From an uncultured Mycoplasmatota bacterium (GTDB lineage: Bacteria > Bacillota_I > Bacilli_A > RF39 > UBA660): a DNA stretch of 64,000 nucleotides. The DNA lies in assembly GCA_947574255.1 (NCBI GenBank), contig CANPJT010000001.1:4554-68553 (forward strand), read 5' to 3'. The notes under the pieces were generated by a model that ran no database searches, was not told where the DNA came from, and saw only the letters and a list, made by a program, of their open reading frames with translations. Shown one piece after another: positions 2,659 to 7,448 of the stretch (position 1 is the stretch's first letter; the number at the start of each line of letters is the position of its first letter). Made by a program: the position numbers and the translations under genes.

Positions 2659-3288
2659 TTATGTTTGAGGTGTTCCTTCCTGAACTTTTCCTTCCGCATC
2701 TAGCTTTAGATAAACGCCTTGACCAATTATACTTTCGTCTGCATCTTCTTTAATCCATATCTTTAAATTAAAAGTTATGGTTTCTCCAACTTTAATACTA
2801 GATTGTTCTAAATGTTTTTTGCCAGTAGAATAGTTATTTAAACTACTTAAAGTTGTTCCAGTTCCAATTGTAGTATCATTAGCTGGCTCTTTAGTGTATT
2901 TTTTAGTTAATGAATATTTAATATTTGAATGATCTACTAATTCTACTCCACTTGGAGCACTTGGATCATTGTAAATAATTAAATTATAATCTGATGGTAA
3001 AGTTCCTATATTAGTAATACTAAAAGTGAAATTACAACCACCACTACCTGCTCCCGATTCATCTGATTGAGGCATTAAACAATTACTATCTGCATTTTCA
3101 TCAACTGTTATTGTACTACCTTGTCCATATGTAATTTCTAGACTTCCAGCATTGACTACTTGATTTGCTGAATTACTTCCTACTTTAAGAAAAAGGGCAT
3201 AACTTGTTCCAATTACTATTAATGTCAAACAAATAACGACGTATGCAACTACTCTAGTCTCCCTTTTAAAAATTTTCTTATAGTTCAT
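2659..3288 (-). CDS. TasA/camelysin-like secreted protein (predicted SipW substrate)
   Basis: N-terminal hydrophobic segment ends in GTSYALF, comparable to TasA GGTWAAF and CalY GGTFAFF. Lies immediately downstream of sipW, as tasA does in B. subtilis. RBS GGTGA present. Confidence 0.55.
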   Translation of the reverse strand: MNYKKIFKRETRVVAYVVICLTLIVIGTSYALFLKVGSNSANQVVNAGSLEITYGQGSTITVDENADSNCLMPQSDESGAGSGGCNFTFSITNIGTLPSDYNLIIYNDPSAPSGVELVDHSNIKYSLTKKYTKEPANDTTIGTGTTLSSLNNYSTGKKHLEQSSIKVGETITFNLKIWIKEDADESIIGQGVYLKLDAEGKVQEGTPQT

Positions 3289-3336
3289 ATTATCACCATA
3301 CTATTATAATAACAAAAATGCTAGTTTTTTACAATA

Positions 3337-4191
3337 TTAATGTTTGGTATTTCTTGCCTTTTTGTTCTTTTTAGATTTTTTTTGTTTATTATTTACTTTG
3401 TGTTTATTTTTATCTATTTTGATAACTTTTGTATTTTTATTATTTTCTTTAACTTCAATAACTTTTACAGTTTTATTGGTTTTTATTGGATCAGGCTCAT
3501 TGATATTTTTTTCAATGTTTAAACGTTTTTTTATTATTTCTTTACGTTTTTCTTCACGCTTCATTTTTATTTTTTTCTTAAGTTTTTCTTTTTTATCTAT
3601 TTTTTCAACTTTATTTTTTACTTTTAATAATTTAAATACTTTTAATATATCACTAATTATTATAAATAAAGCAGGAATTATAACGATTACTAACCAACCT
3701 CCTTGGTTGGCTACTAAATTTTGGACTTTTCCTAACTGTGGGACACGAAATACTACTTTTCCAATAATATTATCATATTCTGCTGGAGAACTATCTGGGC
3801 TTAAGTTATTGTCTCCTTTTGTTGTATAATGAAAACCATTAGATGTTTGATTTATTTCTGTTACACGATGGGTTATTGTCATTCCTCGAGATATAGAACT
3901 GGTAGATATAAATGTTATAATATCTCCTACTTTTATGTCTTGAGGACTATTTATCTTCTTAGCAACTACAACATCTCCAACATTTATGTTTGGTGTCATA
4001 CTAGGACTTATAATCGTATATAACGATACAATGGGTTCGAATTTGCCACCATTTTTTTCGGCCAATCTGTTTCCTGTCATATAATATGCAAAAAACAATG
4101 CTAAAATAATCAGTATTATAAGGGCTGTCCATGATATAATTGTTGTAATGAATTTTAATATACCTTTTAATCCACTATAATTTTTTTTCAT
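3337..4191 (-). CDS. sipW: Signal peptidase I, SipW (ER/archaeal) type, with a roughly 100-aa lysine-rich C-terminal tail
   Basis: Catalytic motifs ISPSMTP (Ser), TITHRV (His) and GDNN. N- and C-terminal transmembrane segments. An unusually basic K-rich tail follows the C-terminal TM. Confidence 0.8.
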   Translation of the reverse strand: MKKNYSGLKGILKFITTIISWTALIILIILALFFAYYMTGNRLAEKNGGKFEPIVSLYTIISPSMTPNINVGDVVVAKKINSPQDIKVGDIITFISTSSISRGMTITHRVTEINQTSNGFHYTTKGDNNLSPDSSPAEYDNIIGKVVFRVPQLGKVQNLVANQGGWLVIVIIPALFIIISDILKVFKLLKVKNKVEKIDKKEKLKKKIKMKREEKRKEIIKKRLNIEKNINEPDPIKTNKTVKVIEVKENNKNTKVIKIDKNKHKVNNKQKKSKKNKKARNTKH

Positions 4192-4490
4192 ATAGATAGC
4201 CCTTTCTATTCTATTTTATTATAAATCATGATATATAAAAATACAAGATAAATTTGAGAGTACACAATAATGCACCTTAAGTTTTGAAATATAGTAATCA
4301 TATACTTCTTAATAAAATTATTATTAAAAATAAGTGATTTATTTAAAGATTCTCTTAGCAATACGTAATTAAAGATTTTTAATAAAATAAAAGATATTTA
4401 TAATTTCAAACTTATAAATATCTCATGATAAAGAAATTTTAATATTAAATTAAACATATTGTGCATTTTCTTTTTATTTAATTCTTTTAA

Positions 4491-6695: not shown

Positions 6696-6747
6696 ACAAC
6701 GATTCTCCTTACTATAAAATAGTATAGCATATGGAATAAATTAGAGC

Positions 6748-6779
6748 AATAAAAAAAAATCTACCTTTGTTAGGCAGAT
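6748..6779 (-). terminator. Rho-independent terminator after the tasA-like gene 2
   Basis: Minus-sense AUCUGCC-uaacaaa-GGUAGAU (7 bp, one G.U pair) followed by U9. Confidence 0.55.
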
Positions 6780-6788
6780 ATTTTTAAA

Positions 6789-7448
6789 TTAATCTCCTGT
6801 TGTATTTTTAGTACCCGTTGCATAAAAATCCATTACTACATTAAAATCTTGTCCTTGTTGTGAGTTTTGATCACCATTATCTTTATATTCAAGTACAAGA
6901 TAATATGTATCATTAGTATTTGCATCTACAGTAATATCTTGAGTTTTTGTTCCATCAGTTTGGCTAGTTAATACAGGTGTTTCACTTGCATAAGCATCTA
7001 AACCAGTACAAGTTGCTGTTGAAGTATATTTACCATCTGCACTTACATTTGGAGTATTTGTACAAGCAGCTATTGTAGTACCATTAGATTTATAAAGTTT
7101 CCATTCAATATCTTGAACTCCTGCTTCATTTTTAAATGCAGAAATTTTATTTGCTGTTACTTCAATAGTTGCACTTATTTCTTGACATTCATCAGTAGTA
7201 CATTCACCTTTAATTGTTAAACTTCTTACTATTTTTCCTCCTGGATATAAATCAGCACTAGTTATAGTATCACCCATAGTCATTTTAGCACTTGGCAACA
7301 CATATGTTTTAACAGTAGTAGTACGAGTTGCTTCATTATCAACTGGAGTTACTTGCGCTGTAAAATAAGCAAATGTAGCACCTACTACTGCAACTAATAA
7401 TGTTGCGATTGCGATAACTGTTAACAATATAGTATTTTTCTTTTCCAT
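6789..7448 (-). CDS. TasA/camelysin (CalY)-like secreted protein 2 (predicted SipW substrate)
   Basis: N-terminus MEKKNTILLTVIAIATLLVAVVGATFAYFTA, compared with CalY ...IGGGTFAFFSD. 219 aa, T/S-rich. Confidence 0.6.
   Translation of the reverse strand: MEKKNTILLTVIAIATLLVAVVGATFAYFTAQVTPVDNEATRTTTVKTYVLPSAKMTMGDTITSADLYPGGKIVRSLTIKGECTTDECQEISATIEVTANKISAFKNEAGVQDIEWKLYKSNGTTIAACTNTPNVSADGKYTSTATCTGLDAYASETPVLTSQTDGTKTQDITVDANTNDTYYLVLEYKDNGDQNSQQGQDFNVVMDFYATGTKNTTGD

Follow-up and report, generated by a model that had tools for sequence, protein, structure and literature searches.

A group of four genes in an uncultured Mycoplasmatota bacterium raises the question of what is built when a SipW-type signal peptidase is encoded among three secreted proteins, one of which consists largely of calcium-loop repeats. 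The genes lie in a 64,000-nucleotide stretch (the window) of contig CANPJT010000001.1, where four minus-strand open reading frames (ORFs), arranged head to tail in a region of 25% G+C, encode a protein that we call P1, a long repeat protein that we call the giant, the peptidase SipW, and a further protein, P4 (Table 1). We consider it probable that this locus encodes a SipW-dependent surface fibre of the TasA/BsaA type, assembled by donor-strand exchange, with the giant as its stalk or anchor subunit. SipW-dependent TasA and BsaA systems are already known; the combination of a repeat stalk with a subunit-like end domain is an uncharacterized design. Our literature searches turned up no account of a calcium-loop stalk protein that has a TasA-like domain at its end, nor of a P1–giant–SipW operon in lineages of gut metagenome-assembled genomes (MAGs) or its link to conjugation genes. 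A preliminary description of the locus had proposed an uncharacterized fibre or matrix system, an interpretation that the present analysis supports, and its four ORF coordinates, three N-terminal motifs and repeat count (about 40; we counted 41) are all correct. It had overlooked the conservation of the operon across many gut MAG species, as well as a version of it beside the conjugation genes of a type IV secretion system (T4SS).

At the level of its family, P1 can be placed in the TasA/BsaA superfamily as a divergent member. The family is large (1505 matches at E<=1e-3), and among 49 aligned relatives, 14 match the Peptidase_M73 profile PF12389 (E<=0.01), 40 match TIGR04088, the model of the SipW-cognate signal (E<=0.1), and 11 match the BsaA model TIGR04090 (E<=0.1; best 1.1e-4), which the P1 of the window does not match. 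Four relatives (P0063, P0065, P0084 and P0102) score 25-28 bits against a gathering threshold of 22.5 over positions 9-190 of the 196 in PF12389. The earlier designation of P1 as TasA/camelysin-like thus stands for the family, through relatives that pass Peptidase_M73 and match BsaA, but P1 itself fails PF12389. An AlphaFold2 model of P1 (predicted local distance difference test score, pLDDT, 82) shows a beta-sandwich from about residue 53, and the segment between leader and sandwich is of low confidence, as expected of a free donor strand. When this model was compared with 350,542 PDB chains by Foldseek, the top match was the TasA fibre (8aur_A; E 1.1e-3, probability 1.00, 222 columns, template-modelling score 0.35), a weak match that is consistent with a common fold and short of decisive. 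The first 31 residues of P1, MEKKNTILLTVIAIATLLVAVVGATFAYFTA, have a mean identity of 90% across the family as against 41% for the remainder, a figure raised in part by the use of N-terminal words as seeds in both searches, although paralogs found by a full-length profile carry the same leader. A G(A/T)TFA(Y/F)F junction occurs in 133 of the 135 P1-like ORFs of the fetched loci. In TasA, the new N-terminus generated at TWA↓AF (the arrow marks the cleavage site) is the donor strand (PMC9674648), and the most conserved residues of TasA-like proteins sit in the protomer interface (Roske et al., PMC10151520). P1 also contains four cysteines (residues 83, 88, 129 and 147), of which C129 and C147 are invariant family-wide; such conserved pairs of extracellular cysteines, in P1 and in the giant, are worthy of note in a host that is presumably a strict gut anaerobe. 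A GramPos_pilinD1 match on P1 was rejected (21.2 bits against 23.1).

Judged by profile scores, the peptidase is a SipW-type enzyme that falls short of an ortholog-level SipW. Its reported identity as an endoplasmic reticulum (ER)/archaeal-type enzyme is borne out by a score of 106.1 bits against a cut-off of 51.85 with TIGR02228 (the archaeal/ER-type signal peptidase I model, covered at positions 8-154 of 158), whereas the Bacillus SipW equivalog NF046067 gives 96.6 bits against 190. The sequence contains the motifs SPS64M, TH108RV and GD127NN, which we take to be the boxes of catalytic Ser64, His108 (not Lys) and Asp127. There are two hydrophobic segments (about residues 8-43 and 159-191) and a C-terminal tail of 97 amino acids (aa) that includes 39 Lys or Arg (residues 188-284; window 3337-3627). 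The SipW proteins encoded beside conjugation genes are 350-400 aa long.

The giant begins with a charged stretch (residues 1-29; window 6609-6695), followed by a single hydrophobic segment that ends in SATYS↓YF. A TasA-like T-[FY]-[AS]↓[YL]-F junction is common to all three neighbours of SipW, as had been noted before, and in P1 (GATFAYF), the giant (SATYSYF) and P4 (GTSYALF) alike it ends a single hydrophobic segment. Most chromosomal giants keep both an acidic cytoplasmic motif, (Y/F/L)(Q/E)EQYxxLLxEE..KKK, and a G(A/S)T(Y/F)(S/T)Y junction. Since this acidic motif and the Lys-rich tail of SipW would both face the cytoplasm, an electrostatic interaction between them is conceivable.

Beyond the junction, the giant consists of 41 units of 12 residues, typically D-x-N-G-D-G-K-P-D-I-N-I; at the DNA level these correspond to 36.8 tandem copies of a 36-nt repeat, overlaid by a higher-order repeat of 261 nt. 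Its 20 cysteines are arranged as ten C-x3-C pairs, of which nine read CDLNC and one CDVNC, and every giant examined contains at least two such pairs. The preliminary description had classed these units as thrombospondin-type-3 (TSP3) repeats, an assignment that we reject: Pfam TSP_3 (PF02412) scores 8.5 bits on a 77-aa segment, far below its cut-off of 25, and finds no match on the whole protein, and a PDB sequence search returned no significant relative of the repeat region with a solved structure. The best profile is the FG-GAP calcium loop (23.9 bits against 22.1), EF-hand_5 being weak. The units match only generic DxDxDGxxD calcium loops, and "TSP3-like calcium-loop repeat" is a fair label for them. 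Matches to MSCRAMM Sdr/Clf models (about 100 bits against cut-offs of 999-2500) were set aside as low-complexity matches to acidic dipeptide repeats. In one Tenericutes-labelled MAG (L017, 3887-10954) the operon is followed by an ORF of about 2355 aa in which 15 calcium-loop motifs occur and which may encode another large surface protein.

The stalk is followed by a domain of about 139 aa, and it is this domain that relates the giant to P1. The preliminary description had recognized a distinct C-terminal domain, which is indeed present, but had missed that it is itself a P1/TasA-like domain: profile comparison with hhalign relates it to P1 with a probability of 97% (E 2.5e-11), and the TasA fibre is its best-covered structural match. 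A HMMER search with the domain found 398 representatives, and it also occurs at the N-terminus of proteins of 450-900 aa. P4 belongs to a small family (43 proteins) that matches the family of the giant C-terminal domain (hhalign probability 87.8%, E 3.4e-6, 114 columns). Against P1 itself it gives 4%, with no detectable relation beyond the leader, so that P4 is linked to the superfamily solely through the giant and its likeness to TasA is only transitive; the earlier view of P4 as TasA-like has to be corrected accordingly. Similarity by BLASTP among P1, P4 and the giant C-terminal domain is absent or marginal, and profile comparisons alone connect them. A local jackhmmer search from P4 merged all families, possibly through drift via the shared leader, and hhalign was relied on instead.

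The P4 of the window is a short form. In other species the P4 domain is fused to a C-terminal DUF6273 (24.9 bits against 23.5), and long homologues of about 460-480 aa occur at L019 14265-15620, L009 4435-5820, L031 4569-6023 and other loci; the presence of DUF6273 suggests that the long form is a tip-adhesin variant of P4. In many species sipW is followed by a gene of another family, whose proteins are about 180-195 aa long (L004 12044-12580, L019 13622-14206, L009 3818-4402, L022 11470-12006); this family has no copy in the window. Its members have an N-terminal membrane segment and a C-terminal GNEMQGKxLxxxF, which recalls the N/Q-x-QG-K-x-F end of P1 and of the giant C-terminal domain.

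The arrangement of these genes is conserved. A scan of 185,579 species genomes, seeded with the P1 alignment and hence biased toward loci containing P1, yielded 480 loci with P1 relatives, of which 80 were retained. Nearly all of the latter come from uncultured gut MAGs labelled "Bacilli", "Tenericutes" or "Mycoplasma sp. CAG", which probably correspond to RF39-like lineages; the hosts of these gut Bacilli are humans, mice, rabbits, chickens and ruminants. In the closest relative, the mouse-gut MAG "uncultured Bacilli bacterium MGBC109233" (L001), the corresponding P1 shares 84% identity with that of the window, and synteny extends over all four genes. The usual order is P1 (one to six copies), an optional small protein with the C-terminal domain, the giant, and SipW. 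Among the 50 species-level loci whose downstream flank extends to 6 kb or more, the giant is present in 42, SipW in 44 and both in 40, a recurrence that shows the arrangement is not due to chance. Giants range from 386 to 1279 aa and from 9 to 79 repeats.

Two genomic contexts can be distinguished. In the chromosomal version, found in 19 loci, the operon comes after genes for a LysM protein and for a membrane protein of 535 aa; the locus of the window is among the 19, and one genome contributes duplicate contigs. In the second, the upstream genes encode a coupling protein of the VirD4/TraG type together with a rhodanese, a VirB4-like ATPase and a SpoIID/M23 hydrolase; homologs of the coupling protein were found in 13 loci (L005, L006, L010, L011, L014, L015, L021, L025, L036-L039 and L069). 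There, as at L005 (1-15391), P1, a 182-aa protein, an 80-aa protein, a giant of about 900 aa and SipW directly follow the coupling protein and rhodanese, in what looks like a conjugative element. Because the order is kept in two unrelated contexts, the module is a conserved unit that has moved between them.

The gene content, homologies, repeat anatomy and gene order observed here lead us to infer SipW cleavage, calcium binding, donor-strand polymerization and an anchoring role for the giant, which could be combined as follows. In the model for BsaA, a subunit exported by Sec stays tethered through its signal peptide while it accepts the N-terminal strand left free on the growing oligomer, and SipW subsequently releases it (PMC11580942). 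P1, as the abundant major subunit, would likewise be exported by Sec and briefly retained in the membrane by its highly conserved signal peptide. SipW would cut it after ..GATFA, and the freed N-terminal strand, beginning YFTA.., would enter the beta-sandwich of the next subunit, as in the donor-strand exchange of TasA and BsaA. The giant would be a specialized minor subunit composed of a membrane segment, a 41-repeat calcium-loop stalk and a P1-like domain able to accept a P1 donor strand. A domain that accepts this strand without having a free N-terminus beside it would stop growth and tie the fibre to the membrane segment. In the version that we favour, therefore, the giant would terminate the fibre and hold it at the tip of a calcium-stiffened stalk reaching from the membrane through the wall. 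This version is preferred because the cytoplasmic EQY..LL..EE motif is conserved before the membrane segment in most chromosomal giants, because the SipW-type junction is absent from the giants beside conjugation genes, and because stalk length is variable. P4 would be an additional minor subunit, whose DUF6273 in other species might be adhesive.

If correct, this reading bears on a general problem. Among the protein scaffolds of Gram-positive biofilms, TasA and BsaA fibres serve as the models, and their initiation, termination and fixation to the cell are still unsettled; the giant, in which a subunit-like domain is joined to a membrane segment by a length-variable stalk, is a concrete candidate for the part that anchors or terminates them. 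The bacteria that carry the system are uncultured gut Bacilli with small genomes, whose surface biology is barely known, and a conserved fibre could explain how they attach to hosts or partner cells.

Several results weigh against the proposed fibre. Neither P1, P4 nor the giant matches PF12389 at E<=1. With TIGR04088, P1 reaches 16.4 bits against a cut-off of 19, and an NCBIfam profile search found no match to this model in the giant or P4. The P1 family as a whole is only weakly related to B. subtilis TasA by hhalign (probability 24%, 64 columns; the TasA query sequence agrees fully with 8AUR across mature residues 28-261). Alignment A1, in its mature part, has no invariant or near-invariant Asn, Glu or Lys that could make up the Asn-Glu-Lys isopeptide triad of BsaA. 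The junction motif is not present in giants beside conjugation genes, so that SipW processing of giants would not be universal. Calcium binding by the repeats is predicted from a loop consensus, and the direction of strand exchange and the anchoring role of the giant are proposals.

The junction of the giant, kept in most chromosomal giants including this one in the P1-like form G-A-T-Y-S-Y-(F/I), admits a different reading. If the giant were cut at SATYS↓YF, its free YFRIY strand could prime or cap P1 in the manner of TapA, and its distant C-terminal domain could take the strand of another fibre, so that fibres would be joined by a long calcium-dependent spacer. TapA is thought to give the first donor strand from its own N-terminus (PMC9674648, PMC10151520), and the giant gene directly precedes sipW as tapA does (PMC9674648). 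The TapA position noted in the preliminary description is to that extent real, but among Pfam and NCBIfam matches of the giant there is no TapA-type family, the conjugation-adjacent giants do not have the junction motif, and a conserved acidic cytoplasmic motif would be odd in a leader that is simply discarded; we regard a nucleator or cross-linker as unlikely. The same architecture of membrane segment, variable stalk (9-79 units) and terminal beta-sandwich would also suit a stand-alone, membrane-anchored fibrillar adhesin with a carbohydrate-binding-like tip, one that shares the operon and the peptidase and never joins P1 fibres, and the occurrence of the tip domain at the N-terminus of 450-900-aa proteins would fit such a role. 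We judge this rather improbable, given that the homology of the tip is specifically with the P1 subunit family, that its coding sequence almost always lies between P1 and SipW, and that its best-covered structural match is the TasA fibre.

A last alternative concerns P1 rather than the giant. The contrast between its leader and the rest of the protein, and the near-identity of this leader in almost all P1-like ORFs, could mean that the hydrophobic N-terminus is retained as a structural or membrane element in the style of type IV pilins and archaellins, with a fibre built around helices; a PDB sequence search with the P1 family profile gave a single match, to the N-terminus of an archaeal flagellin, which is not significant (E 7.8). 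Yet the leader ends in a TasA-type T-F-A↓Y-F, the SipW-cognate model is matched by most relatives, and a SipW gene is almost always adjacent. No prepilin-peptidase motif is evident, a partial census of the genes in the conserved module turned up neither a prepilin peptidase nor a pilus ATPase, and the conservation estimate itself owes something to seeding on N-terminal words. We consider this explanation very improbable, and return to the fibre of cleaved P1 subunits held by the giant.

Such a fibre would combine features of several known systems. Like the C. perfringens sipW-bsaA-bsaB-bsaC locus, the genes described here place a dedicated SipW beside a number of secreted TasA-like proteins that include a major polymerizing subunit, and some P1 relatives, though not the P1 of the window, match the BsaA model. 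They differ in that P1 has no invariant triad of the kind described for BsaA (PMC11580942), in that no von Willebrand A protein is encoded at this locus, and in the possession of a repeat-stalk protein with a subunit-like C-terminal domain, which is undescribed for bsa. With the B. subtilis tapA-sipW-tasA operon (8AUR) the locus shares an ER-type SipW, an accessory gene directly before sipW, a similar cleavage junction (TWA↓AF in TasA, TFA↓YF in P1) and, as far as the P1 model predicts, a beta-sandwich, TasA being the top though weak Foldseek match of that model. It departs from B. subtilis in a SipW that misses the equivalog cut-off and bears a Lys-rich tail, in the low hhalign probability between TasA and the P1 family, and in a giant that lacks TapA homology, is about three times longer than TapA and ends in a TasA-like domain. 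The tandem D-x-(D/N)-x-D-G-x-x-D pattern of the giant resembles TSP3, FG-GAP and EF-hand loops, and cysteines recur in some of its units, as they do in the TSP3 "wire"; its strict 12-residue period and the placement of its C-x3-C pairs are unlike the TSP3 pattern. Archaeal bundling pili (7UEG), cannulae (CanX, 9H8B) and DUF1102 tubes are among the structural matches of the P1 model, archaeal TasA-like donor-strand filaments are processed by archaeal-type signal peptidases, and, to judge by the title of PMC12518558, calcium has a part in the assembly of cannulae. These archaeal filaments have no detectable sequence similarity to P1, and their calcium sites lie inside the subunits, with no separate repeat stalk. 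In sortase-assembled pili the basal pilins, and in chaperone-usher pili PapH, are minor subunits that share the fold of the major subunit, end polymerization and fix the fibre to the cell. The role proposed for the giant is only a functional analogy to these; there is no homology to them, and no sortase signal or usher is found here.

The copies of the operon beside conjugation genes invite a more speculative proposal, namely that P1, the giant and SipW form a self-contained mobile organelle, a "fibre on a stalk", and that the T4SS-adjacent copies serve as a mating-pair or aggregation fibre of Gram-positive conjugative elements. The giant of such an organelle would be a terminator subunit anchored in the membrane, with a calcium-stiffened stalk that displays a TasA-like fibre outside the wall. 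We think this improbable at present. The recurrence of the module beside conjugation genes would tie the TasA/BsaA-like class of fibres to gene transfer, and a mobile fibre module, if it exists, would be the donor-strand counterpart of a conjugative pilus or adhesin in uncultured gut Bacilli.

Features of the locus are collected in Table 1. Strong ribosome-binding sites of the AAGGAG type precede P1 and the giant, and the terminator that had been reported after the 219-aa gene was found as a hairpin followed by a T-run; together, these signals are consistent with a stoichiometry of major and minor subunits. The candidate promoter upstream of P1 is weak evidence, because the AT-rich region yields such matches at or below the expectation from shuffled sequence.

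Table 1. Features of the P1–giant–SipW–P4 locus (window coordinates; arrows mark predicted cleavage sites).
Feature	Position	Strand	Description
Candidate sigma-70-type promoter	7561..7590	-	TTTGCA-18-TATAAT, 5' of P1; consensus scan, 10/12 positions
P1	6789..7448	-	Predicted major fibre subunit, divergent TasA/BsaA-like, 219 aa; SipW-type signal peptide MEKKNTILLTVIAIATLLVAVVGATFA↓YFTA
Intrinsic-terminator-like hairpin	6759..6779	-	Directly 3' of P1; 8-pair stem, then T-run TTTTTTTTTAT
Giant	4491..6695	-	Calcium-loop repeat protein, 734 aa
Giant, residues 1-56	6528..6695	-	Charged cytoplasmic N-terminus DFQEQFEVLKKEEEEE..KKR, one hydrophobic segment, SATYS↓YF junction
Giant, residues 64-594	4914..6506	-	Predicted calcium-binding stalk; 41 units D-x-(D/N)-x-D-G-x-x-D-x-N-x
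Giant, residues 596-734	4494..4910	-	C-terminal beta-sandwich domain homologous to P1 family
SipW	3337..4191	-	SipW-type (ER/archaeal-type) signal peptidase I, 284 aa; TIGR02228 and motifs
P4	2659..3288	-	Predicted minor subunit, 209 aa; signal junction GTSYA↓LF

Upstream of the operon, window positions 10047-12168 encode the 535-aa multi-pass membrane protein (weak DUF4352) and a 150-aa LysM protein. These two precede the operon in the 19 chromosomal loci, are absent from the conjugation-gene loci, and probably represent lineage synteny outside the fibre module. The LysM protein suggests that the organism has peptidoglycan, despite the "Tenericutes" labels. Between the membrane protein and P1 lie a gene for a SUFU-domain protein (PF05076, 99.8 bits; window 8169-8798) and a tRNA-Cys (GCA) (window 9865-9938), a stretch that looks like a local insertion because the corresponding gap in L001, the closest relative, is just 358 bp. 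By synteny with the annotated L001, window positions 13800-29000 hold a ribosomal-protein/secY/adk/rpoA cluster, which places the fibre operon of this bacterium in a core chromosomal neighbourhood.

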